From NCBI GenBank assembly GCA_937934275.1, contig CALHAM010000024.1, positions 1,018-65,017 on the forward strand: DNA of 64,000 nt, read 5' to 3'. Each line of letters begins with the position of its first letter. The stretch's first letter is position 1. This document shows positions 16,810-56,031 of the stretch, in pieces. The position numbers were made by a program, and so were the translations under genes. The notes beneath the pieces are model-generated. The model saw only the letters and a list, made by a program, of their open reading frames with translations, did no database searches and had not been told where the DNA came from. The stretch is from an uncultured Saprospiraceae bacterium. Its GTDB lineage: Bacteria > Bacteroidota > Bacteroidia > Chitinophagales > Saprospiraceae.

Positions 16810-17595
16810 GTGAAAAACATCAACGCAAAACTCGCTTACATCGTTCTGCCGCTTTCGGTAGTGGTGGGCTACCTCGTGTACACCTACGTAGCGGGCAATC
16901 CAGCCAATTTTGTAGACGGCGACCCCAAGGGCCAAGCGCGCAACATGTTGGGCACTATTTACCAAGGGGGAATGCTTGTCATTCCACTGTTGAGCTTTCA
17001 ATTCATCGCCTTGGTATACATCATTGAGCGCTACCTAACGCTGCGCATGTCGCGCGGACGAGGAGACCTGCGCGATTTTATTCTCAAGGTAAAAAGCGCA
17101 CTGTCGGAGGGCAACTATGAACGGCTACTCCAATTGAGCGACCAACAGCGCGGTGCGGTGGGCAATGTCGTCAGAACGGGCACCGAAGTGTTCTTGAGCC
17201 GAAAACCTACAGAGCAGGTAGATCAAAAAGACATCTACCTCATCCAGAAAGAGCTAGAAGAGGCAACGCAGTTGGAGGTCTCGGAGCTGACGACCAACAT
17301 GTTCATCTTAGGCACGGTAGCGCAGATATCTACCTTAGTAGGGCTGTTGGGTACGGTAACGGGTATGATTCAGGCCTTTGCCGCTTTAGCGCGGGTAGGC
17401 GAACCGGACCCCGTGGGCCTGGCTGGCGGCATTTCTCAAGCCCTCGTAACTACCGCTGTGGGCATTACCACGGCGGCGTTCACCATTGTTTTCTATAACT
17501 CGTTCAACAACCAAATCGAGCGCATTACCTACACCATCGACGAGGTATGTTTCAGCATTATTCACAGCCTGAAACTCAGGTTTTTCGTAGACTAA
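16810..17595 (+). CDS. exbB: MotA/TolQ/ExbB proton-channel family protein (ExbB)
   Basis: 261 aa with a GTG start. Canonical C-terminal hairpin ISTLVGLLGTVTGMIQAF...GGISQALVTTAVGITTAAFTIVFYN. Followed by two exbD genes and tonB. Confidence 0.85.
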   Translation: MKNINAKLAYIVLPLSVVVGYLVYTYVAGNPANFVDGDPKGQARNMLGTIYQGGMLVIPLLSFQFIALVYIIERYLTLRMSRGRGDLRDFILKVKSALSEGNYERLLQLSDQQRGAVGNVVRTGTEVFLSRKPTEQVDQKDIYLIQKELEEATQLEVSELTTNMFILGTVAQISTLVGLLGTVTGMIQAFAALARVGEPDPVGLAGGISQALVTTAVGITTAAFTIVFYNSFNNQIERITYTIDEVCFSIIHSLKLRFFVD

Positions 17596-17610
17596 AAAAA
17601 TGGACCGGCC

Positions 17611-18225
17611 ATGCGTTGGAGTGCCCTCTCCCGATCTAAGACGCCGCAGATAGACATGACTCCCATGGTAGACATGGCTTTCCTGCTGGTTACCTTCTTC
17701 CTGCTGGCCACCACCTTTAAAACAGGCGAAATCGTATGGGTGCAGATGCCCCGATCGGTGGCGGGGCTAAACCTTCCGATGACTGACCTGCTGACTATAT
17801 ATGTCGATAAAGACGGCCGGGCTTATATGAGCTTGACCTCTCCGCAAGCGCGCCGAGCATGGTTGCACGAATATGGGCGAGTCAGCCAGGTCGCTTACAC
17901 AGAAGAAGAATATCGAGCCTTCGAAACCATGTCGGGCTTTGGCGTCTCGTCGGCGCAATTGCGCAACCTCTTGCAAACACCTGCCGAGGAGCGCAAACGG
18001 TTCAAGCAAAATGGAATTCCCATAAAAGGCGACAAAAACGAACTGGCGGAGTGGATCATCCTGGCGCGCGTAACCATTCCGCGGCTGCGCGTGGCTATTA
18101 AGGCCGATGCTAATACGCCTTACCAAAAAGTCGAGGACGTCATCAAAACCCTGACAGAGATCAACGTGCTGCGCTTCACCCTCATCACCCAACCTAAAAA
18201 ATTGAACGACGATGCTGGATATTGA
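17611..18225 (+). CDS. exbD: Biopolymer transporter ExbD/TolR family
   Basis: 204 aa. N-terminal TM with conserved Asp (DMTPMVDMAFLLVTFFLL) and an ExbD periplasmic domain (VAIKADANTPYQKVEDVIKTL). Confidence 0.8.
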   Translation: MRWSALSRSKTPQIDMTPMVDMAFLLVTFFLLATTFKTGEIVWVQMPRSVAGLNLPMTDLLTIYVDKDGRAYMSLTSPQARRAWLHEYGRVSQVAYTEEEYRAFETMSGFGVSSAQLRNLLQTPAEERKRFKQNGIPIKGDKNELAEWIILARVTIPRLRVAIKADANTPYQKVEDVIKTLTEINVLRFTLITQPKKLNDDAGY

Positions 18226-18754
18226 CGAGATTCCTAACGGCAACCGTCTGCGTCGGCTGGGTCGCACAAGAGAAAAAGCCGGCATTACGACCGACATGAA
18301 CTCGATGGTGGACATGGCCTTCTTGCTGCTTACCTTTTTTATGCTTTCAACGACCATGTATCGCCCGCGGGGCATGGAGCTGGTTATGCCAGTGCCCGAC
18401 GATGAAGACACGCGCACCGAAGAAGTACAGGCCGTCAAAGCCTCTCAGGCGCTCACGCTGATTGCCATGCCCGACCATAAACTCTATTATTATCGCGGGC
18501 TACTCGAGGCTGCCGGCATCAAGCCCATTACTTACGACAAAGCAGGGCTGCGCAACTTCTTACAGGCGTTTGTCCAGGAAACCGACAAGCCCGTCGTACT
18601 CATCAAGCCACACCCCGACTGTGCCTTTGAGGACCTTGTAACCCTGCTGGATGAGATGAACATCAACCATATCAACCGCTATGCCATCGACCGCGTAAGC
18701 GAGCAAGAACTTGCCCGGATGCGCAGCGCTGGCTTTCCTGTGCCCAATCCATAA
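18212..18754 (+). CDS. exbD: Biopolymer transporter ExbD/TolR family (second paralog)
   Basis: 180 aa. Overlaps the previous gene by 14 nt. Motifs DMNSMVDMAFLLLTFFML and VVLIKPHPDCAFEDLVTLLDEM. Confidence 0.8.
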   Translation: MLDIDEIPNGNRLRRLGRTREKAGITTDMNSMVDMAFLLLTFFMLSTTMYRPRGMELVMPVPDDEDTRTEEVQAVKASQALTLIAMPDHKLYYYRGLLEAAGIKPITYDKAGLRNFLQAFVQETDKPVVLIKPHPDCAFEDLVTLLDEMNINHINRYAIDRVSEQELARMRSAGFPVPNP

Positions 18755-18778
18755 ACCGCATTTCTATTTGAAGCAGCC

Positions 18779-19624
18779 ATGAACGAGTCCCCTACTCAGC
18801 AAGCGATAGAGGAAAGCCTCTTCGCCTTCAAAAACAAAGCCTATGGGGCCTATGTCCTGCGGCAACGCCGCGGGCGGCATCTCATGGGCGGTATTGTGGG
18901 CAGCTTGCTGGTGCTTGGCCTGCTGTACAGCTATCCCCTGTTGTGGTTATGGCTTCGCCAGCAGGCGGAAATGTCAGACCTCAAGGAGGTCGAAGTCAAC
19001 GTAACCCCCTATGCCGAACTCGCTGCACCGCCGCCCGTGGCCGAACCCGAAAAACCCAAAGAGCCTGAGGTGGCGCCTCCAAAAGTGCGCACAGTGAAGT
19101 TTCTCAGGCCCGTAGTTAAGGCCGATGAAGAGGTGCGCGACGAAGAAGAAATCCCCACTGTTGAAGACCTCAGTAAAGCCAACCCCGCCCGCATGACTCA
19201 AGAGGGCAGCGGCGACCTTTACGTAGATTACGCCCCCAAAGTAACCCCACCCGAGCCGCCCCCGCCGCCCGAGCCGCCCAAACCAGCGCCTCCCAAACGC
19301 GAAGAACCCATTTACGACTTTGTTTCAAAACGACCGGAATACCCCGGCGGCGAAGAGGCGCTCATGGCCTATCTGGCCGAAAACATCAAGTACCCGCGCT
19401 TAGCTTTAGAAAACAACATTCAGGGCATCGTCGTCGTCCGCTTTGTGGTGGACACGGAAGGGCGCATCTCTAACGTCGAAATACTCAAAGACATCGGCGG
19501 TGGCTGCGGCGCCGAAGCCGTACGCGTCGTGAAGGCTATGCCCAACTGGACGCCCGGCGAACACAACGGCGTCAAAGTGAGCGTTCGCTTCGTCCTGCCG
19601 GTGCGCTTCCAACTCATTAAATGA
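18779..19624 (+). CDS. tonB: Energy transducer TonB
   Basis: 281 aa. N-terminal TM, a Pro/Glu/Lys-rich spacer (PPPVAEPEKPKEPEVAPP...PPEPPPPPEPPKPAPPK), and a C-terminal TonB domain (PEYPGGEEALMAYLAENIKYPRLALENNIQGIVVVRFVVDTEGRISNVEILK). Confidence 0.85.
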   Translation: MNESPTQQAIEESLFAFKNKAYGAYVLRQRRGRHLMGGIVGSLLVLGLLYSYPLLWLWLRQQAEMSDLKEVEVNVTPYAELAAPPPVAEPEKPKEPEVAPPKVRTVKFLRPVVKADEEVRDEEEIPTVEDLSKANPARMTQEGSGDLYVDYAPKVTPPEPPPPPEPPKPAPPKREEPIYDFVSKRPEYPGGEEALMAYLAENIKYPRLALENNIQGIVVVRFVVDTEGRISNVEILKDIGGGCGAEAVRVVKAMPNWTPGEHNGVKVSVRFVLPVRFQLIK

Positions 19625-44656: not shown

Positions 44657-47600
44657 CTAAAGGCGCACAAGCCGATGTACGGCGCGCCCGGTAGCAGTTT
44701 CTGCCGAGAAGTACAGTACGCCTCGCGCACCTCCCAAATCGTTGGCATCCAAGCGAATAGCCAAAAGGCCAGCCTCGAAATTGCCCGCTTTCTGCCATAA
44801 TAGGCGCCCAGCAGCATCGCGCACGCACAACACAGCGCAGCCCTCATGGGGCAGATGAACATACACCCAAGTCTCCTCGCCAAACGGATTGGGCTGGCTG
44901 CTTAGCGCCGGCACCGCCGCAGCCTCTGCCGGCAGTTGTGGCGAAAAGCGCAATTGCGGGCGCAGCAGGCGGTGCTCCTCCGGGCTGTAAGCTTCGGCAG
45001 AGGTAACGGCGTCCGACAACGTCAGGCATTGGCTCAGACGGCCAGAGCGCAAGGCCCGAGCGCGCAGACGCAACACCGGCACACCGCCGGCATCCCAGCT
45101 AAACGTTAGGCGCTGGCCGCTGTTGAGCACGGCGTAGTGTTCGGGCGTAAAACCTCTTGTAGGCAATACTTCCAACACTTCCAGCCCAGGGCACTCCAGC
45201 GTGCCCTGTAGGCCTGCTACCGCCCTTTCAGCGCGCAGGGTGAGGGTTACCTCCTCGCCCGCCTGGAGGCGGCAGTCCTCTACTTCCAAATACAGTGGCT
45301 GGCGCTCATGCAAAGCGTGGTCGTGGAGGTTGAACTTGACGCTGGCGTTGGCATCACCCACTTTTACAATAATAAAGCTCAGGGGGATGGAGTCGAGCGA
45401 GCTGATCTGCTCTGAAAACGGCGGGGTGAAGGGATTAAGCGGGTTCTGAAACGCATGGGCGGCGGGCACAAAGCGCCAAGAAGGCGAAGCCGGCAGTTCG
45501 GTATAGATGCCCAGAATGAGCTTGCGCAGTTCGACGATGTCGAAAGTAGTAACCGTGCGCGAGCCGTTGGCATCGGCCGCAATAATGCGATAAGGCGTAG
45601 GCAACAACTCCAGGCCTAAAATGTGCCGGTTGATAAGCAGCAAATCCAGCGTGGTAACACCTTTGGCGTGGTCTTCGTTGTAGAGGGGCTGCACCACAAA
45701 AGTGGAGGCAAAAGGTATGGTGAAAGAGAATTCGCCCTGAGGGTTAGTAACGTCGTAGGCGACGATGGGGCCTTGCAGCGGCGAGTTGCCCTGCAGTTCG
45801 ACGATGATGTTGGGTACTCCTTCGCCGTGTTCGGTGTGTATGTCGCCCGGGATGGTCGTTTCGAAGGGCGCACACAGGTATGGAGAAGCCCCCACTTGGA
45901 TGACCTGCTCGCAGGTGGCCCTATTGCCACACCTATCCTCCACCGTCCATTCGATGCGGTGAATACCGCGCGGCAATTTGGGCGCAACGAAGACGGAGTC
46001 ACTGCTCTGACGCCAAACCAGTTGCACTCGGAGTGTATCTCCAACGGCAAGGCGGTGCAGGTCAAAGGAGTACTTGCTCTGAGCCGGCACAGAGCGTCGG
46101 TCGAACTCTAGGAGCGTTCCGCCCGTATAGCCGGGGGTGTTGATGTTATTGTAATAGAGGGACCCAGGAGGCGGCTGCACTGCCGAAGGAAACACGGACT
46201 CTACCTGTTGGTCACCGTCTAAGTCCAAAAACAGCCGATAACTGACTACGACGTCGGAGCGCTCACAACCATCTGTGGCCGCAATGGAAACGACAGCATC
46301 TGCCTCGCACAGGTCCAAGTTCTGGAACACCCAAAAGTCCTTGTCGTCTGTGGTTACGCTCGCAAACTTCGCGGTGTCGGAAGGGCAGTCGATGAGGGGG
46401 TCATCGGTATCTTGCACCCAGATGCGCTGCTCGTACGTGTAGCCATTGCCAGAGGGGTTCCAGAAAATACTGTAATCTGTTGGGAAATCTCCGGGGTTTA
46501 TCGCCACAAAAGTAGCAGCAGAGTCCGGCGAGGCATTAGGCGACGATACGAAAGGTCCCGGCAGATTATCTGGGTGTAGAGCAATAGAATTGGGTTGCGG
46601 GTTGGGCACTTCCAGTAGCGGCTGGTCGGGGTTGTGTTGGCAGCGGTTGTAAACCTTCCATTTGCGCAAGATGAGGTAGCACGCCTCGGAGACAGATTCT
46701 ATCCTTTCGTCCGCAAGCTCAACTACCACGTCCTCGCAGCCCGAGCTTAAGATTTCGGGTGCATCGCTCGGGTTAGCACTGCAGTCGGAGATAATGTGGT
46801 CGTCTGGGAATCGAATATAGTAACCAAAATCAGCCGTACTGGTGATTCGCTGAGTGCAGTGGGCACTATTTCCTTGCCTATCCCAAACCTGAAACATGCG
46901 CAAGAGCACGCCGCTGTTACATGCCCAGCGGAAGTCGGTAGTGTCCAGCGCGGTGGCAACGGAGTCTACACCGCAAGAGAGCGTTACTTCCCCATAATCC
47001 TCCAACGTCGGATCGAAAGTGGCGCACTCGGTCGTTACGTCAGCGGGTGCTTGGCAGCGAGGCGGGTTGTTGTTCACCACCTGAACGCGCGTTTGACATT
47101 CCGAATAGTTTCCACCTCCAACGCTGTCGGGCACAGGCCCAGCGGGGATGGCCGCGTCGTAGACCCTCAAGACAGCCGTGATATCGGCTTCAAGGTCGGC
47201 GCAGCAGACTTGTATGAAGTCGCTCCACATAGAGGTCGTATCGCATTCAGACGGCACAGCGCGCCGCACTTTTAGGCGCACGGGGCGACAGTCATCGGTA
47301 GAGCCGTTGTTGAACAAGTCAGCAGGTGCAGCCCCTCTGCCTTGATCGTCCAAGAAGACGGTGATCAACGAGTCGCACAGGGCGGTAGGCAGCTGTTGGT
47401 CGCGCACATCGAGGCCGAATTCGCACTCGGCGGCGTTGTCGCATTCGTCGTAGACCTTCAAAGTCATGGGCAGTATGCCGCTGTTTAGGCCCGACAGTTC
47501 GCCAAAGACAGCCAGCGTATCGAAACGCAGGGTATCGTTGCCGGCAAAGTCCGTTAGTTCGGCTTCCAGCGAGTCGGCTATGCCCCAGTGCAAGACCGCG

Positions 47601-48913
47601 CGCAAAACACGGGAGCAAGCATCGGCAACGACAAAATCGGGCAGGTCCACCGCACCTGAGCAACCGGCATCCAGCAGTACAGCGCCAATAATGGGCGGGC
47701 AATGCACGGTTGGGCCTTGGTCGTCGGCCAGCTCCACCACCTGTTCGCCCACGACTGGTTCGGCGTTAGGATCCCCAGCCTGACAGGCATCGCGCACCGT
47801 CCACAGGCGCGTCAGCAGGCGGGAGCCACCACACAAGGGCTGTTCCGTGTCGGAGTATTCCACCTCCAGGTCGCACACGGCGTCTGGCCCTAACAGGTAG
47901 CGCCGCGCACCCACCTGAAAGTACGGCCAACCCACCGCATCGGGCTGCGACGACGCCCCGCAGGAAAGGGTAGTATCTTGAGGAAATTGCACCGCTTGCA
48001 GCGGACGCACGCGCTCGATGATTTGCACGCAAGTGCTGAAATTACCTCGTGCGTCGCTCACCGTCCAGAAACGGCGAATAACCCCGAAAACGCCGGCCGA
48101 GTCGCACGCATAGGTGGCGCTAACGTCGGTAAAGAGCATGCTCACGTTGCCTGGACAATTCTCCTGAACGTCTGGATAGCCGCCGGCAATGCCCAACGAG
48201 TCGCGCAAGAAGGTGGGCGTCAGGTGCTCAAGCGGCACCACGCAAGGCACTTGCAAGGCGGGGCACGCCAGCGCTGGCGGCAGGGTATCGCGCACGCCAT
48301 CCACCTCAATGAGGCACTCGCTGCCCACAAGGCTATCGCGCACCCCCATCCGAAACGCCTTGCCCAAGTCATCGAAGGTGAAAACAGCGGGAGTGCGCCT
48401 TGTCGGAGAGTCCAAGATAAACGTGCCCAGTTTGTCGGGGCAGGTGTAATAGCCCATGGCCAAGAGGTCTTCTGCATTTGGCGCAACGACGCACTGCGGG
48501 CCTAAATAGAGGGTTATCCCTTCCGGGCAGTGCATAGGCAACGTATCCGGTTGCACCTCTACGGTAAAGGCACAGCTTACGTCATTGCCCGAAGTATCGG
48601 AGGCAGAGAAGATGTTTTGCGTCAGCCCCAGAGGAAAAGTAGCACCTGAAGGCAGACCACTAACCAACACTGCGTCCAACGTATCGGGGCCGTCAAAGGC
48701 CAGCACTTCGTAGACGTACTCAACGCCGCAAGTACCTTTAGACAAATAAAGAATGGTATCTGGTGGGCATACAATCACCAGTCCTGTAGTGTCTGGCGAA
48801 GCCCATTGGGCACTCAGAGATATGGTGGTTTCGCAAGAGTGAGCACAAGCGACGGAAAAAGGGAAAGCGCTCATCACAACAGCCCAGAAATAGGCGGGTA
48901 TCCACAAATTCAT
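44657..48913 (-). CDS. Giant T9SS-secreted Cys-rich adhesin-like protein (HYR-like repeats, CarboxypepD_reg-like, dockerin-like EF-hand pair, cohesin-like module, Por_Secre_tail CTD)
   Basis: About 1418 aa from the ATG at 48913 (MNLWIPAYFWAVVMSAFPFSVACA). Repeated C-x-n-C HYR-like modules (CPPDTILYLSKGTCGVEYVYEVLAFDG). Dockerin-like TTLDLLLINRHILG...ADANGSRTVTTFDIVELRKLILGI. CTD is QPNPFGEETWVYVHL...RDAAGRLLW...GVLYF. Confidence 0.75.
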   Translation of the reverse strand: MNLWIPAYFWAVVMSAFPFSVACAHSCETTISLSAQWASPDTTGLVIVCPPDTILYLSKGTCGVEYVYEVLAFDGPDTLDAVLVSGLPSGATFPLGLTQNIFSASDTSGNDVSCAFTVEVQPDTLPMHCPEGITLYLGPQCVVAPNAEDLLAMGYYTCPDKLGTFILDSPTRRTPAVFTFDDLGKAFRMGVRDSLVGSECLIEVDGVRDTLPPALACPALQVPCVVPLEHLTPTFLRDSLGIAGGYPDVQENCPGNVSMLFTDVSATYACDSAGVFGVIRRFWTVSDARGNFSTCVQIIERVRPLQAVQFPQDTTLSCGASSQPDAVGWPYFQVGARRYLLGPDAVCDLEVEYSDTEQPLCGGSRLLTRLWTVRDACQAGDPNAEPVVGEQVVELADDQGPTVHCPPIIGAVLLDAGCSGAVDLPDFVVADACSRVLRAVLHWGIADSLEAELTDFAGNDTLRFDTLAVFGELSGLNSGILPMTLKVYDECDNAAECEFGLDVRDQQLPTALCDSLITVFLDDQGRGAAPADLFNNGSTDDCRPVRLKVRRAVPSECDTTSMWSDFIQVCCADLEADITAVLRVYDAAIPAGPVPDSVGGGNYSECQTRVQVVNNNPPRCQAPADVTTECATFDPTLEDYGEVTLSCGVDSVATALDTTDFRWACNSGVLLRMFQVWDRQGNSAHCTQRITSTADFGYYIRFPDDHIISDCSANPSDAPEILSSGCEDVVVELADERIESVSEACYLILRKWKVYNRCQHNPDQPLLEVPNPQPNSIALHPDNLPGPFVSSPNASPDSAATFVAINPGDFPTDYSIFWNPSGNGYTYEQRIWVQDTDDPLIDCPSDTAKFASVTTDDKDFWVFQNLDLCEADAVVSIAATDGCERSDVVVSYRLFLDLDGDQQVESVFPSAVQPPPGSLYYNNINTPGYTGGTLLEFDRRSVPAQSKYSFDLHRLAVGDTLRVQLVWRQSSDSVFVAPKLPRGIHRIEWTVEDRCGNRATCEQVIQVGASPYLCAPFETTIPGDIHTEHGEGVPNIIVELQGNSPLQGPIVAYDVTNPQGEFSFTIPFASTFVVQPLYNEDHAKGVTTLDLLLINRHILGLELLPTPYRIIAADANGSRTVTTFDIVELRKLILGIYTELPASPSWRFVPAAHAFQNPLNPFTPPFSEQISSLDSIPLSFIIVKVGDANASVKFNLHDHALHERQPLYLEVEDCRLQAGEEVTLTLRAERAVAGLQGTLECPGLEVLEVLPTRGFTPEHYAVLNSGQRLTFSWDAGGVPVLRLRARALRSGRLSQCLTLSDAVTSAEAYSPEEHRLLRPQLRFSPQLPAEAAAVPALSSQPNPFGEETWVYVHLPHEGCAVLCVRDAAGRLLWQKAGNFEAGLLAIRLDANDLGGARGVLYFSAETATGRAVHRLVRL

Positions 48914-49109
48914 AGAGAGCGTTTTTTTTATTGCGGTGAACAAGCAAAAGTGAACGGATTAAATAAGAAGCGCCCCTGTATCTGCGAAAACTGCGCCAAA
49001 AGGTCTATCCCAATCGTTTCAAGTTGCTGATTTTGTAGACCTGAGGCCCAGAATGCCGCTGTAAAAAACCATTTAGCGACTTTGCGTTTACCTCCGACCT
49101 TTGCCGCCG

Positions 49110-51878: not shown

Positions 51879-52107
51879 ATTGATGCTGTTCGCGTGGTGA
51901 GGGTAACCTGTTGTGGATTAAAAAATGCGCACAAAAGTAACGCACTTAGCGCCAGCGGCGGTGTTGCCCTTAGGGCCAAACTTGGGTCAGGTAGCGAGGT
52001 GTGTTACCATTTTCTTAAAAAATTGGCTTCCGTGGTTACCCACCAGCAGGAGGCGGCATTAAGCAGCAAACACATTCTTCATCGCAAATCAAAAAGCAGA
52101 TTTTGTC

Positions 52108-52836
52108 ATGAAAAACCGCGTATTGTTTCTGCTCGCTTTTGTTCTGGTTTCCGCAAATGTCGCCTTAGCTCAGTTGAGCGGCATAGGTTTCCGCCCGATG
52201 GCAACGTTTTCCACCTATAAGCTCTCTCAAGACCTCAACGACAACTACGACAGTTACCTGCGTTTGGGCGGAGGGGGCGCGCTGTTTGCCGAATTCAACT
52301 TGGGCAGCCGCTTCACCTTTCAGCCCGAAGTGGTCTACGTGCAGCGCGGAGCCAACATCAAGAGTGAAAGCCGCTTGTACTGGGACGGTCATCACTTCGG
52401 CTACCCGCGCGATTATCGAGTAAACGAAATCCGCCAGCAAGAGACGCTGCACTACATCGACATTCCGCTAATGTTCGAAAAGAACTTTGGCGGCGGAAAT
52501 GTGGGTGCCTACGTAGCCTTTGGCCCTGCCCTTTCTATCGCCATAGCTAATGGCTTAGGCCGTGAAGAGCTGTATGTATCGCACCTGAACTCGGAAGGCA
52601 CACCGACGTCGTTCACCGATCGCCAAGAATATATCATTGAGATGGGCAAGGGCCGCAACGATGACTACCGCAAGGGCGACTTCAGCGTCAACTTCGGCAC
52701 CGGTCTCGTGCTCATCTTAGACAAAGGCGAAATCGGCCTCGACGTACGCTACTCGCACGGCCTTCGCAACATCGACATCAGCGGCATCAAAAACCGCACG
52801 CTCCAGGTAGGCCTGTCCTACATGTACTACTTCTAA
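52108..52836 (+). CDS. Small outer-membrane beta-barrel protein (PorT/OMP_b-brl_2-like)
   Basis: 242 aa with signal peptide MKNRVLFLLAFVLVSANVALAQ. Alternating beta-strand pattern and the terminal motif LQVGLSYMYYF (aromatic C-terminus). Confidence 0.65.
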   Translation: MKNRVLFLLAFVLVSANVALAQLSGIGFRPMATFSTYKLSQDLNDNYDSYLRLGGGGALFAEFNLGSRFTFQPEVVYVQRGANIKSESRLYWDGHHFGYPRDYRVNEIRQQETLHYIDIPLMFEKNFGGGNVGAYVAFGPALSIAIANGLGREELYVSHLNSEGTPTSFTDRQEYIIEMGKGRNDDYRKGDFSVNFGTGLVLILDKGEIGLDVRYSHGLRNIDISGIKNRTLQVGLSYMYYF

Positions 52837-52916
52837 TCGCCCCCCGGCGTTCGCGCAGGCGCGCGGCTTATGTTCTCACTACCAGGCTCTTATCGTCAAA
52901 AATCACCCTTTGCGCT

Positions 52917-53180
52917 ATGTGCTGTCCCAATTGCGGCCATGCCGCTCAAGTCAATCAGACGCGCTGTCGCCAGTGCAACTACAAGTTGCCGCAAGCAGAA
53001 ATACCCGGCGCTGCTCCCGTCGCAGAAGTCGTCGCCTGTTGGAACTGCGCCGCACAAAACCCCGCTCATCACAGCCGCTGCGCCTGCTGCAACGCTCGCT
53101 TAGAAGATGCCCCGACCCAACGCCGCACTCATTCGCTCACCCTAAATGCTTACCGCCATGGCCAACCACAAGAGCGTTAA
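52917..53180 (+). CDS. Small double-zinc-ribbon protein
   Basis: 87 aa. Two CxxC-x10-CxxC units (CPNCGHAAQVNQTRCRQC and CWNCAAQNPAHHSRCACC). This frame is the only one of three overlapping ORFs with a structured Cys pattern. Confidence 0.6.
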   Translation: MCCPNCGHAAQVNQTRCRQCNYKLPQAEIPGAAPVAEVVACWNCAAQNPAHHSRCACCNARLEDAPTQRRTHSLTLNAYRHGQPQER

Positions 53181-54051
53181 CCCGATGTTCCTCTCCGCCT
53201 TAGACATCCTGACGGGCGCACTGGGCGTGTTCATCGTGCTCAACTTCCTCAACACGCGCATGATGGGTACAGGCCCTCACACACCCACCGCGCCAGCTGT
53301 TCAGCCAACGGAAGAGAAAAAGCAAAAAGAATCGTTGCACGCCTACAAGCCGAAACCACAAGCCCATTCAGAGAGAAATCGGCCGCCTATGCCGACGCAA
53401 AAGCCTACGACCACTGTAGCGGAAAAACCACAGCCCAAGCCAGAGACCACCGCACCCGAACCTAAGCCCGAAGCGGCAGAGCCAATGCCGCCAACCCTAC
53501 CTCAAGACCCCGTGGCCGTAGACTTGATGAAGCAAACTAAGGGCGATGTTACCCTCCTGCTCCAGCAAGAAGGCATGGCCAAGCAAAGCGTCGAGTTTAT
53601 GCTCAAGCAGGGCAGTCAGGTGTGGAAACCCGGCCGGGCCGGCAAATACCAAACCGACGACTTTCAGTACGAAAAAAGCCTGAACTACTTCTACCAAGCC
53701 CGCATCAAGCCCGGCAATTACGAAGTGTGGGTGCGCGTCAAGAAACGCACCAACGCCTCCGGGCAGCAGCCCTTTGCGCTCTACGGAAAGATCGTGCAGC
53801 CCGGCTACCGCAGCATTACACACAACTTCGGCACCTTCGCCACCTCTAGCTCCGATTGGGTGCTCGCCGGTACGCTGACCATCTTAAACCACGCCCTGAA
53901 CTATCAGTCGGCTCTTCCGCCCGCCACTGCCGTAGGGCCGACTAACAACGATGCTGCGCCCACGGCTCCTACCGCGCCGGCTCCTGCAACACCCACCCCA
54001 GTTAACTCGCCAACCCCTGAACCCAAACGCAGTGGCAAGTGGGGGCGCTAA
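53158..54051 (+). CDS. Single-pass membrane protein with Asp-bearing TM helix, Pro-rich spacer and beta-rich C-terminal domain (ExbD/TonB-hybrid-like)
   Basis: ATG at 53158 (MANHKSVNPMFLSALDILTGALGVFIVLNFLN); alternative starts are 53146 and 53185. A P/T/K/E-rich spacer of about 75 aa, a globular beta-rich region of about 170 aa, and a P/T/A-rich tail. Overlaps the zinc-ribbon ORF by 23 nt. Confidence 0.6.
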   Translation: MANHKSVNPMFLSALDILTGALGVFIVLNFLNTRMMGTGPHTPTAPAVQPTEEKKQKESLHAYKPKPQAHSERNRPPMPTQKPTTTVAEKPQPKPETTAPEPKPEAAEPMPPTLPQDPVAVDLMKQTKGDVTLLLQQEGMAKQSVEFMLKQGSQVWKPGRAGKYQTDDFQYEKSLNYFYQARIKPGNYEVWVRVKKRTNASGQQPFALYGKIVQPGYRSITHNFGTFATSSSDWVLAGTLTILNHALNYQSALPPATAVGPTNNDAAPTAPTAPAPATPTPVNSPTPEPKRSGKWGR

Positions 54052-54105
54052 AAGTGCTCTCCTCTCTCTTCCCTTCATTCGAACATTCAAAAGCACGCTA
54101 TCGCC

Positions 54106-54924
54106 ATGTTTGCTCAAAAAAATAGCCACCTCGCCTACAGCCTCGGCCTGACAGCCATCGCCTTGACCATCGTCGTCACCGGTTATCAAATGTCACCCGC
54201 CGGCTCCTTTGCCGAAACGTTCTTCTTCGCCCTGGGCGGCAAAATGCCCGAAGGCCTCATCCAAGGCGCTATCTACTTCTGCTTCTTCACAGCGCTATTC
54301 GGCATCAATGCCCTCAATACCCGGCTGAGCCGCGAGCAGTACGCCTTTAAGGCACGGTTACTGCCCGAAACAGAGCAGTATGTGCTGTACCCCGAAGACG
54401 TCAACCAAATCAAATTGAACACCATAGAAGTGGAGCGCCATCTCGGCCAGGGCATTGTTACCGACCTCATCAAACAGGCTGCCACCAAATTTCGCTCCAG
54501 CCACTCACCCGCCGAAACGCTGGCCATGGTCGAAACGGTGAGCGACATGCACCGCAAATCGCTGGAACGCGAACTGTGGTTGGTCAACACCTGCCAAACC
54601 CTCATCCCCGCCTTCGGATTCTTAGGCACGGTGCTGGGCATGGCTGCCGCCATCCTGAACATGGGAAAGGTGCAGCCCACGGCTCAAGCCGCGCAACTCA
54701 ACGGTACCGTTGCTGCCGCTGTGCCGCAGGCTACTCTTAGTGCAGCCGACATCTCGACGCTTATCGATAGCCTCGGCACAGCCTTTTTCACAACTATCCT
54801 GGCCATTGTCTTGGGCATCGTCGCAAGCGTCGCTATCAAGCGCTTAGAAACACGCGTCGAAGACTTCCTGACCGGCAGCAAGCGCTACGTTGTGGAAAAC
54901 TTAGTGAACCGCATTCATTTGTGA
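54106..54924 (+). CDS. Divergent MotA/TolQ/ExbB-family proton-channel protein
   Basis: 272 aa. Two N-terminal TM helices and a cytoplasmic domain of about 95 aa. The hallmark hairpin is LIPAFGFLGTVLGMAAAI ... LGTAFFTTILAIVLGIVASVAIKR. The inter-helix loop is longer than in the canonical ExbB at 16810. Confidence 0.7.
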   Translation: MFAQKNSHLAYSLGLTAIALTIVVTGYQMSPAGSFAETFFFALGGKMPEGLIQGAIYFCFFTALFGINALNTRLSREQYAFKARLLPETEQYVLYPEDVNQIKLNTIEVERHLGQGIVTDLIKQAATKFRSSHSPAETLAMVETVSDMHRKSLERELWLVNTCQTLIPAFGFLGTVLGMAAAILNMGKVQPTAQAAQLNGTVAAAVPQATLSAADISTLIDSLGTAFFTTILAIVLGIVASVAIKRLETRVEDFLTGSKRYVVENLVNRIHL

Positions 54925-54947
54925 TCGTGTATTGCCTGACCCATCCA

Positions 54948-54982
54948 CGGCGTCCTCCGCAAGGAGCGACGCCGTTTTTTTT
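54948..54982 (+). terminator. Rho-independent terminator after the MotA/ExbB-like gene
   Basis: 12-bp GC-rich stem (CGGCGTCCTCC / GGAGcGACGCCG with one bulged C), a GCAA tetraloop, then T8 (54975-54982). It starts 24 nt after the stop codon. Confidence 0.8.
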
Positions 54983-55042: not shown

Positions 55043-55050
55043 TAAATTTG
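55043..55050 (+). promoter_or_regulatory. Candidate -7 promoter element (TAnnTTTG) for the zinc-ribbon/PH-like gene
   Basis: TAAATTTG, 21 nt upstream of the ATG at 55072. Confidence 0.4.
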
Positions 55051-55071
55051 CTGCTGCAAAGACGGCTATCC

Positions 55072-56031
55072 ATGACTCGCTGTACAAAATGTTCGACCGA
55101 GTTGATTTTAGGCAGCAAGTTCTGCTATCGCTGCGGCGAGCGCGTCGTAGAGCAGGCCAAGAAGTGTCCGTTGTGCCGAGCAGAGAACCCACTGGCAGCC
55201 ATTTTTTGCCATGAATGCGGCTTTCACTTTTCGACAACGGAGAGCCAGCAGACGAGTTACACGCCCCGCTATGCCCTCGACTTTGTACCAGAACGCATCG
55301 GGACCCAACTGAAAGCGCTGTTTTTTCGGCTGCTGCTGGAGCGGGTGCGAGAAGAGCATAACATACAGAAGCACAGCCAATACGTACAAAGGTTTTACGA
55401 CTCGCGCTTCGCTACCATCTTTGAGGCGCGCACAGCACAGCTGGCCCAAGAAGTACTGACGCGGTGGGAGCGCTTCGGACAAGCAGGGCTGCCCGCAATA
55501 GACCAGTTTCTAGAGGATGCCTTTGAAGGATTGTTGGACTATTTTATCATCGAATTTTGCCCTGACCTCAATGAAGTGTGGTTGCCCAGCGCCATCCTGC
55601 GCTACGAGTGTCCGTTGGCTAAAGAAGTGAATATTGGGCGCATGGTGTTCGACTTTTTGGACCTCGAACGCGAGTTAGAGGTCTGCTATACCAACTTTGC
55701 AACCATGCCTGAGGAGCTCATGGCCAACGCTTGCAAGCGTTTCCTCTTTGCTGGAAAGTCGGAGCAGGTGTTTGTTATTTGCGATTTATCGCTGCGCGGC
55801 AACTGCCGAGAAGGCTTTGCGCTCACCGACCGCGCCCTGTATTGGCGTGCACCGCTGGGGCGAGCGCACGGTGTTGCTTACGAAGACTTGCACGAGGTGC
55901 GCTTCGAGCGCGAGTGGCTGCTCATCAATGGGCATTTTTTCACTGCCAACCCATCACTGAACCTGAAGCTGTATAAGTTGCTTAAAAAATTGCGCCGCTG
56001 CCAACAGCAGCCAACCGTGTCTACAACGTAA
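55072..56031 (+). CDS. Double-zinc-ribbon protein with helical middle region and C-terminal bacterial-PH-like domain
   Basis: About 319 aa from the ATG at 55072 (MTRCTKCSTELILGSKFCYRCGERVVEQAKKCPLCRAENPLAAIFCHECG, four CxxC pairs). The C-terminal VFVICDLSLRGNCREGFALTDRALYWRAP...VAYEDLHEV...LLING resembles YokE/bPH-type modules (inference). Confidence 0.6.
   Translation: MTRCTKCSTELILGSKFCYRCGERVVEQAKKCPLCRAENPLAAIFCHECGFHFSTTESQQTSYTPRYALDFVPERIGTQLKALFFRLLLERVREEHNIQKHSQYVQRFYDSRFATIFEARTAQLAQEVLTRWERFGQAGLPAIDQFLEDAFEGLLDYFIIEFCPDLNEVWLPSAILRYECPLAKEVNIGRMVFDFLDLERELEVCYTNFATMPEELMANACKRFLFAGKSEQVFVICDLSLRGNCREGFALTDRALYWRAPLGRAHGVAYEDLHEVRFEREWLLINGHFFTANPSLNLKLYKLLKKLRRCQQQPTVSTT

Follow-up and report, generated by a model that had tools for sequence, protein, structure and literature searches.

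The analysed DNA is a 64,000-nucleotide stretch (hereafter the window) of contig CALHAM010000024.1, assembled from an uncultured Saprospiraceae bacterium. It carries two adjacent genes, encoding a divergent protein of the MotA/ExbB/TolQ family (272 aa; the putative A subunit of an ion-driven motor) and, directly upstream, a single-pass membrane protein (297 aa; hereafter the partner, or putative B subunit). An earlier note on this DNA, made from its sequence, had described the two genes as a pair. Synteny revealed that the conserved unit is a six-gene module, composed of a four-gene operon and a divergent set of genes for an extracytoplasmic function (ECF) sigma factor and an anti-sigma-like protein, with the pair forming the distal half of the operon. 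The genes for a small outer membrane β-barrel protein (OMP), a zinc-ribbon protein, the ECF sigma factor and the anti-sigma-like protein, as well as a C-terminal KWG motif in the partner, had been overlooked.

The divergent MotA/ExbB/TolQ protein and its partner

The A subunit is demonstrably a member of the MotA/ExbB/TolQ family. Its C-terminal transmembrane (TM) hairpin, noticed in the earlier note, matches PF01618 (MotA_ExbB) with 52 bits against a cutoff of 22.9 (E = 7.7e-14), and this domain is present in the precomputed annotation of all 115 homologues. Searches of NCBIfam gave a weak match to TolQ (E = 2.5e-5) and still weaker ones to ZorA, ExbB and MotA, while BLASTP against the canonical ExbB of the window reached only E = 0.21; the protein is therefore highly divergent. 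An AlphaFold2 model based on the 115 homologues had a mean predicted local distance difference test score (pLDDT) of 82. The top 50 Foldseek matches of this model in the PDB were all TolQ, ExbB, MotA or PomA chains, aligned over approx. 250 columns with a probability of 1.0 in 47 cases and 0.96-0.99 in the other three. The target TM-score was 0.5-0.73 for TolQ and ExbB chains, TolQ being the best match. Thus, the claim that the protein is unrelated to ExbB outside the hairpin holds at the level of sequence but not for the predicted fold, which is that of a TolQ/ExbB-type subunit.

Residues P168, T175 and T230 are invariant in all 115 A-subunit sequences, and alignment of the family profile placed them opposite P138, T145 and T178 of Escherichia coli TolQ. 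In cryo-EM structures, TolQ T145/T178 (ExbB T148/T181) form a polar ring beside the essential Asp23 of TolR, and TolQ P138 kinks the pore helix (PMC12215075). The two pore threonines are separated by 55 residues in the A subunit (46-67 across the family) and by 33 in the canonical ExbB of the window, in agreement with the longer inter-helix loop reported earlier. Four hydrophobic segments were distinguished, as in the ExbB of the window, and the protein ends 29 residues past the last TM helix.

The partner had been given as a 301-aa protein. The open reading frame (ORF) is present on the plus strand and could open at position 53146, but the ATG at 53158, which yields 297 aa, is preferred by gene callers and by the N-termini of homologues. 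More than 100 homologues share its length and layout. The protein has a single hydrophobic helix, as previously noted, and the Asp in it (Asp16) is conserved in all 104 homologues compared. The predicted structure consists of this helix (residues 9-35), a disordered region (36-117), a short helix (118-125), a β-sandwich (131-251; pLDDT > 90) and a disordered tail. The β-rich domain recognized in the earlier note is thus real, although it comprises approx. 138 aa (about 115-252) and not approx. 170. Both low-complexity regions described before, a TonB-style spacer and a second Pro-rich tail, were also found: linker 1 (27% Pro; 70-90 residues, ~77 here) is disordered in the model, and linker 2, rich in Pro, Ala and Thr, contains 25% Pro. 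The protein terminates with a GKWG motif, and KWG lies within the last eight residues of 100 of the 104 homologues. Conservation alternates along the chain (TM helix 67%, linker 1 21%, domain 63%, linker 2 24%, last nine residues 73%), a pattern that would be expected of a helix, a flexible spacer and a functional head.

No characterized family could be assigned to the partner. It produced no match in Pfam or NCBIfam at E-values up to 1, and no relative in the PDB by sequence. Neither the whole protein nor its N-terminal fragment matched the Pfam models OmpA and MotB_plug, and no Pfam match to TonB_C, vWA or GldM/PorM was obtained. In Foldseek comparisons of the β-sandwich with the PDB nothing reached E ≤ 0.001 (best 0.065, unrelated folds, target TM-score ~0.3), and the best match in BFVD (E = 0.009), with a root-mean-square deviation of 35 Å, was not usable. 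When 1.84 billion representative proteins were searched exhaustively with a profile of the domain alone, the β-sandwich was found only in the partner family, as six clusters. Proteins with PKD and PPC repeats were considered as relatives of the domain and rejected, the borderline matches sharing a generic PGxYxVxV strand motif. A match of the partner to PADLOC PD-T4-6 (8e-4) covers residues 14-124, mostly low-complexity linker, and was taken as compositional.

Membership of the partner in the ExbD, TolR, TonB, MotB or GldM families was rejected on the absence of matches in Pfam, NCBIfam, PADLOC and the PDB, with N-terminal fragments searched separately yielding none either; the statement that it has no ExbD-like domain was thereby borne out, with Foldseek likewise giving no match. 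The helix reads S-A-L-D-I-L-T-G-A-L-G, with no His and no SHLS motif, and a profile built from the helix alone did not retrieve the ExbDs of the window. The term "ExbD/TonB hybrid", used in the earlier note, therefore describes an appearance and not an ancestry, since the helix profile finds no ExbD or MotB, and both SHLS/His and TonB_C are missing.

Conservation and regulatory signals of the six-gene module

The distribution of the module was surveyed by tblastn over 46 loci (42 from GTDB species representatives and four identified earlier). The MotA-like gene lies directly 3′ of the partner gene in 42 of 42 loci with enough contig, and this synteny holds throughout 40-100% sequence identity; hence, the two genes are adjacent wherever the contig allows. 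The zinc-ribbon gene, upstream of the partner, was found in 45 of the 46 loci, and the OMP gene in every locus with room upstream. The sigma gene falls inside the flank of 34 of the 46 (60-94% identity) and the anti-sigma gene of 29. In the window and three distant contigs the gene order is identical: anti-sigma-like and ECF sigma genes on the minus strand, followed on the plus strand by genes for the OMP, the zinc-ribbon protein, the partner and the MotA-like protein. No ExbD-, TolR- or MotB-family genes were called in the four loci for which gene calls and Pfam matches were retrieved. The features of the locus are summarized in Table 1.

The carriers found in the survey are all metagenome-assembled genomes (MAGs) of Saprospirales, and the block spans families of this one order. 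All 42 GTDB loci come from MAGs; no cultured Saprospirales isolate was matched among the species representatives. A MAG labelled Thermoanaerobaculia (L046; JAKLJF010000326.1) contains the anti-sigma, sigma, OMP and zinc-ribbon genes and the start of the partner gene, at 47-78% amino-acid identity, and this contig is probably misbinned.

Table 1. Features of the six-gene module and of the canonical Ton operon in the window
Feature	Position	Strand	Evidence or remarks
Canonical ExbB, two ExbD genes, TonB	16810-19624		Ton operon of the window; ExbB 16810-17595, ExbDs 17611-18754
Anti-sigma-like membrane protein, 307 aa	50322..51245	-	NCBIfam NF052375, Pfam TPR_18, one hydrophobic segment, synteny
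ECF-type sigma factor, 198 aa	51282..51878	-	NCBIfam TIGR02937, synteny
Promoter-like motif GGTTAC-N16-GCATCAA	51880..51908	-	Abuts sigma start codon
AT-rich upstream element GTTAnnnTTTTCnTAAAAA-N8-12-GGTTAC	52003..52039	+	Candidate operator or UP-like element
Promoter-like motif GGTTAC-N16-GCATTAA	52034..52062	+	46 nt 5′ of OMP start codon
Small outer membrane β-barrel protein, 242 aa, signal peptide	52108..52836	+	Pfam OMP_b-brl_2; operon gene 1
Cytoplasmic double zinc-ribbon protein, 87 aa	52917..53180	+	Pfam DZR, 8 conserved Cys, no TM helix
Partner, putative B subunit, 297 aa	53158..54051	+	TM helix with invariant Asp16; no family match
Divergent MotA/ExbB/TolQ protein, putative A subunit, 272 aa	54106..54924	+	PF01618, Foldseek, invariant residues
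Intrinsic terminator ending the operon	54947..54982	+	Folding energy, shuffles

The product of the first operon gene was identified as an OMP by a match to Pfam OMP_b-brl_2 (E = 4.7e-16) and has an N-terminal hydrophobic signal. A short GC-rich hairpin with a poor U-tract (52851-52866, plus strand) follows right after the OMP stop codon, and might set the ratio of the OMP to the downstream gene products. The zinc-ribbon protein matches Pfam DZR (2.5e-5), and both of its ribbons (CPxCG...CxxCN) are kept in approx. 40 loci. Its stop codon overlaps the start of the partner gene ("SHDE*" over "MTNK"), which suggests translational coupling. In five loci (L011, L021, L030, L037 and L043) the zinc-ribbon ORF has no "SHDE*" stop and runs 40-150 codons across the partner gene in the alternative frame. 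This readthrough could represent a real overlap, a sequence error or an artefact of ORF extension.

The sigma factor was recognized by TIGR02937 (sigma70-ECF), with 55.3 bits against a cutoff of 42.9. The anti-sigma-like protein matches NCBIfam NF052375 at its N-terminus (E = 4.8e-7), below the cutoff of this model, and contains one TM helix (84-102), a Pro-rich stretch and, after the TM helix, a TPR domain (Pfam TPR_18, 1.9e-4), presumed to be periplasmic.

The strong intrinsic terminator described earlier behind the pair was recovered by folding; a consensus-based scan had not picked up this bulged structure. It consists of a 12-bp stem with one bulge (54947-54975), a GCAA loop and a U-run (-22.4 kcal/mol; z = -4.37), and none of 200 shuffled sequences folded equally well. 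On its 3′ side lies a gene (55048-56031, plus strand) whose 327-aa product carries a double zinc ribbon at its N-terminus (Pfam DZR, 4e-9) and weakly matches PADLOC BnzA (2.6e-7). It was rejected as a member of the module, its synteny being restricted to the three closest relatives (L008-L010).

Within the 64 kb of the window there are exactly two copies of a promoter-like motif, GGTTAC-N15-17-GCAYHAA (0.06 matches expected), one right 5′ of the sigma gene and the other 5′ of the OMP gene. GGTTAC is found approx. 24 nt 5′ of the sigma ATG in all 33 family loci compared, and the pair of sites is also present in other loci, including those in which the sigma genes are 2 kb away (L007, L015). The copy at the sigma gene directly adjoins the start codon, suggesting that the transcript is leaderless. 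The AT-rich element GTTAnnnTTTTCnTAAAAA (52003-52033), next to the GGTTAC of the OMP promoter on its 5′ side, is unique in the window (0 expected) and was found once per locus in 34 loci, always 5′ of the OMP gene; it may be an operator or an UP-like element. In the clade of the window, the sigma promoter has a looser version, GTTACTTTTGTGCGCATTTTTTAA, on its 5′ side (51909-51950, read on the minus strand). Since both transcription units carry the common motif, we infer that the module is probably one autoregulated ECF (envelope-signal) regulon. A scan for sigma-70 consensus promoters yielded nothing relevant, and no RNA element near threshold was detected by an Rfam search of the leader and intergenic regions.

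Relatives outside the family and known motor systems

The nearest outgroup of the A subunit, P0249, shares 38% identity with it and is encoded in a locus (L047) with the same six genes. In P0249 the pore residues are kept and the long loop is absent. The L047 partner has an Asp helix (SFLDLL), then a coiled coil in place of the Pro-rich linker, and a β domain remotely homologous to that of the window (hhalign E = 8e-6, probability 84%). This exchange of linkers can be likened to the TolA/TonB linker dichotomy, in which coiled-coil and Pro-rich linkers are contrasted (PMC12204202). The small upstream protein of L047 keeps one zinc ribbon, and the sigma factor, TPR protein and OMP are retained. 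A metagenome scan queried with the L047 partner produced no matches.

More distant relatives of the A subunit (25-32% identity to P0249) have the C-terminal motif Y-x-L-D-N-L-x-N-R-L in common. Behind each of them a single-pass protein with an S-(A/F)-L-D or G-L-I-D helix is encoded, and the heads of these proteins differ: VWA_3 after a coiled coil in L073 (S-A-L-D helix), an Ig domain (He_PIG) in L080, OmpA in L085, and no recognizable domain in L077 and L079, where two paralogous copies are present. When 1,324 ORFs were searched with the helix profile of the window family, the partners of these distant relatives ranked at the top (E = 0.006-0.4), and the ExbDs of the window were unlisted. 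By its sequence, the partner helix is of the S-x-L-D class common to the partners of related motors.

In L077 (4149-7347) and L079 (5719-8917) a 552-aa MotA-like protein precedes the two paralogous S-F-L-D single-pass proteins, and the motor gene is itself preceded by an Hsp70-like gene (729 aa) and a gene for a protein of 388-446 aa. This looks like a different, uncharacterized system on the same motor clade. Within L073 (5411-8937), FHA-domain genes flank the TolQ-like gene and the gene encoding the S-A-L-D helix, coiled coil and vWA domain; the end of the first FHA gene coincides with the start of the motor gene, resembling the zinc-ribbon/partner overlap of the window.

A design in which arm and ion-coupling helix are merged was proposed in 2025 in a study of monomeric force transducers (Mol Biol Evol 2025; PMC12204202). 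The trans-pore helix (TPH)-vWA systems described there, mainly from Proteobacteria and Verrucomicrobia, comprise a TolQ-like gene without TolR, and in an AlphaFold 3 model the TolQ pentamer encloses two helices, placing the Asp of the trans-pore helix inside its Thr ring (PMC12204202). The study covers vWA heads only, and its criterion separating pore-inserting TPH proteins from side-binding ones is an Asp without SHLS (PMC12204202). The pair from the window shares with these systems a TolQ-like gene syntenic with a gene for an Asp-helix protein with a non-ExbD head, and no adjacent TolR or ExbD gene. Moreover, the TPH-vWA pair of L073 is a detectable relative of the A subunit, with the same Y-x-L-D-N-L-x-N-R-L motif and an S-x-L-D helix. 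On the basis of synteny, the invariant Asp, the lack of SHLS and a weak but consistent helix similarity, the partner was assigned to the TPH class. Unlike TPH-vWA proteins, it has an orphan β-sandwich and a KWG tail in place of vWA, and a Pro-rich linker. The gene order is B then A, with one partner gene as opposed to the heterologous pairs often seen, and the pair resides in a Saprospirales operon with OMP and zinc-ribbon genes, next to ECF sigma/anti-sigma genes. The suggestion that the merged-function motor is undescribed therefore applies to the partner family, which was not found in the literature, and not to the design. Our literature searches found no description of the gene combination, the partner family or Saprospiraceae motors. 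The module is real and conserved, and apparently represents an undescribed variant of the motor design first proposed in 2025.

Compared with the Ton system, the A subunit resembles ExbB in its family signature, its fold and the Thr/Pro residues of the pore, and the partner recalls TonB in its Pro-rich spacer and ExbD in the early Asp of its helix. However, Ton uses three proteins and the module two, and the block contains no ExbD domain, TonB_C, SHLS/His motif or TonB-dependent transporter. The canonical ExbB and two ExbDs to which the earlier note had compared the pair are indeed present in the window, with TonB (Table 1), and their Pfam scores are high: 106 bits for ExbB (PF01618), 63-79 for the ExbDs and 63.7 for TonB. 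From the Tol-Pal system the module recalls TolQ, the best structural and profile match of the A subunit, and an envelope-spanning design tied to an outer membrane protein; a TolA-like helical linker is present in the sister lineage L047. In contrast to Tol-Pal, the module lacks TolR, TolA domain III, TolB, Pal and CpoB, the outer membrane protein is an integral β-barrel and not a lipoprotein, and the periplasmic loop of the A subunit is longer by 22 residues.

A B subunit with an N-terminal Asp helix is also typical of MotAB, PomAB and ZorAB, and the partner helix (D-phi-L-T-x-x-L-x-phi-F) resembles the MotB pattern. The module differs from MotAB and ZorAB in that it lacks an OmpA-like peptidoglycan-binding domain, a plug detectable with Pfam, a large torque-generating cytoplasmic domain, the ZorA tail and ZorC/D. 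GldLM and PorLM are likewise inner-membrane motors of Bacteroidota, in which β-rich domains of the small subunit reach toward the outer membrane and no peptidoglycan-binding domain is present. However, GldL does not belong to PF01618, and Pfam and NCBIfam searches of the pair gave no GldL, PorL, GldM or PorM matches. In GldLM the charge pair is formed by a Glu in GldL and an Arg in GldM, as opposed to an Asp and a Thr ring. Finally, genetic linkage of an outer membrane protein, an inner-membrane motor driven by the proton-motive force and an ECF sigma/anti-sigma couple is reminiscent of FecA-FecR-FecI, but the module contains no TonB-dependent transducer, FecR-type anti-sigma domain or TonB, and its barrel is small and plugless.

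A putative envelope-spanning motor and alternative readings

Ton, Tol, Mot, Agl, Gld and Zor represent one motor design reused for differing envelope tasks. None of the three outcomes that, according to the earlier note, would refute its reading was obtained: the partner has no characterized family, the predicted fold of the A subunit is of the TolQ/ExbB type, and both genes are conserved together. The best-supported reading of the module, which we consider fairly probable, is a motor of the MotA/ExbB class in which the Asp helix and a periplasm-spanning arm belong to one small subunit. The pair would form the inner-membrane core of a proton-driven 5:2 motor of the TolQ/ExbB class, with the 272-aa protein as the pentameric A ring and the N-terminal helix of the 297-aa B subunit in the pore, where Asp16 would be protonated and deprotonated against the Thr175/Thr230 ring. 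The ~77-residue Pro-rich linker would cross the periplasm, followed by the β-sandwich head and KWG, with neither an ExbD/TolR domain nor a separate TonB/TolA. Movement of the motor would be passed directly to a periplasmic or outer membrane target, most likely the small β-barrel of the operon. The zinc-ribbon protein would probably act as a cytoplasmic accessory or regulator of the motor, and the ECF sigma/anti-sigma couple would switch the module on through the common motif. The 5:2 assembly, the position of the helix inside the pore, the coupling to protons, the OMP as target, ECF control and the physiological output are all proposals derived from sequence, single-chain models and synteny. 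The complete scheme, in which a TolQ-like pentamer turns a self-spanning B subunit that pulls on the OMP, the zinc-ribbon protein gates the motor and the TPR anti-sigma/ECF sigma couple switches it, is put forward tentatively, and as a whole we regard it as possible but doubtful.

Several observations weigh against this motor model. The partner helix has no significant similarity to ExbD, TolR or MotB models, its similarity to other S-x-L-D partners is individually weak (the E-values given above come from a small database), and the charges around it leave its orientation unsettled. The second kink proline (TolQ P187/ExbB P190) is not conserved in the A subunit, position 239 being occupied by V, I, F or L. 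The two canonical ExbDs of the genome could in principle serve this A subunit. The β-sandwich and the KWG motif are tied to the OMP solely by shared operon membership, and the -35/-10 reading of the DNA motif is our interpretation of its sequence.

An alternative, compatible with the motor model, is cell-surface signalling, in which the motor energizes a signal passed from the barrel to the TPR anti-sigma protein, in the way TonB-ExbBD serves FecA-FecR-FecI. The main output would then be transcription and not mechanical work on the envelope, such as tethering or remodelling of the outer membrane. The ECF sigma and TPR anti-sigma genes are linked to the operon in most loci, both units share the promoter-like motif, and the sister lineage L047 keeps the sigma factor, TPR protein and OMP. 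Nevertheless, the OMP is a small barrel without a recognizable signalling or plug domain, and about six loci with ample upstream flank have no sigma/anti-sigma genes within 4-7 kb. Within the 64-kb window the motif occurs only at the two promoters of the module, which plain autoregulation fits equally well. We consider signalling as the output unlikely.

As to the mechanism, the chief competing view is that the partner is a transducer of the TonB/TolA type that docks outside the pentamer, the pore being filled by an ExbD or TolR encoded elsewhere, e.g. at 17611-18754. Its layout (a TM helix, a Pro-rich spacer and a globular C-terminal domain) is that of TonB, and the genome holds two ExbD paralogues in one operon. 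However, the invariant helix Asp and the lack of His/SHLS place the partner, by the criterion of PMC12204202, among pore-inserting proteins, and TonB_C is absent. Synteny with the A subunit is strict, no ExbD gene is adjacent in the four loci with gene calls, and the canonical Ton operon is a full set that includes an ExbB and a TonB. Side docking is therefore rather improbable in our view.

Weak matches of the A subunit to ZorA (NCBIfam 0.003, PADLOC 2.6e-4) could point to an anti-phage or conflict system that, like Zorya, is built on a MotAB-type membrane sensor, and distant relatives adjoin FHA, Hsp70-like and CHAT-TPR genes, while the gene downstream of the module in the window is weakly BnzA-like. 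The ZorA matches, however, span only 37-52 residues of the TM hairpin, the 272-aa A subunit has no long tail, a peptidoglycan-binding domain is missing from the partner, and the conserved block, outside which the BnzA-like gene lies, contains neither ZorC/D-like nor other effector genes. The block is kept gene for gene with an OMP and an ECF sigma factor, and therefore suits a housekeeping or stress module and not a mobile defence island, which makes a defence role highly improbable. Least credible of all is the view that the two genes are mere neighbours, with the 272-aa protein as the relic of a degenerate channel and the partner as a periplasmic protein that is anchored in the membrane and unrelated to it. 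The evidence for interaction is not direct and the partner has no detectable homology to known B subunits, but synteny is perfect at 40-100% identity, the Asp and the Thr/Pro residues of the pore never vary, and pairs built on this principle are found again among distant relatives, with other heads.

If the complete scheme holds, the module would constitute a third way, beside Ton and Tol, of energizing the outer membrane. Bacteroidota have been reported to lack a recognizable Tol-Pal system (PMC12204202), and a new motor directed at the outer membrane would therefore bear on the upkeep of their envelope. The module would provide the smallest plausible parts list for such a machine: an A subunit, a B subunit with an arm, a barrel, a cytoplasmic accessory and its own sigma/anti-sigma switch. 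It also supports, independently of vWA proteins, the view put forward in 2025 that certain transducers are located inside the pore of the motor and not at its side. The distant relatives point to a wider S-x-L-D-helix clade with interchangeable periplasmic heads, and under the complete scheme B subunits of this kind would be a modular platform onto which vWA, Ig, OmpA or β-sandwich heads have been grafted.

A few kb upstream of the module, on the minus strand (44657-48943), the window contains a very large ORF encoding a protein of 1,428 aa, Cys-rich over most of its length.

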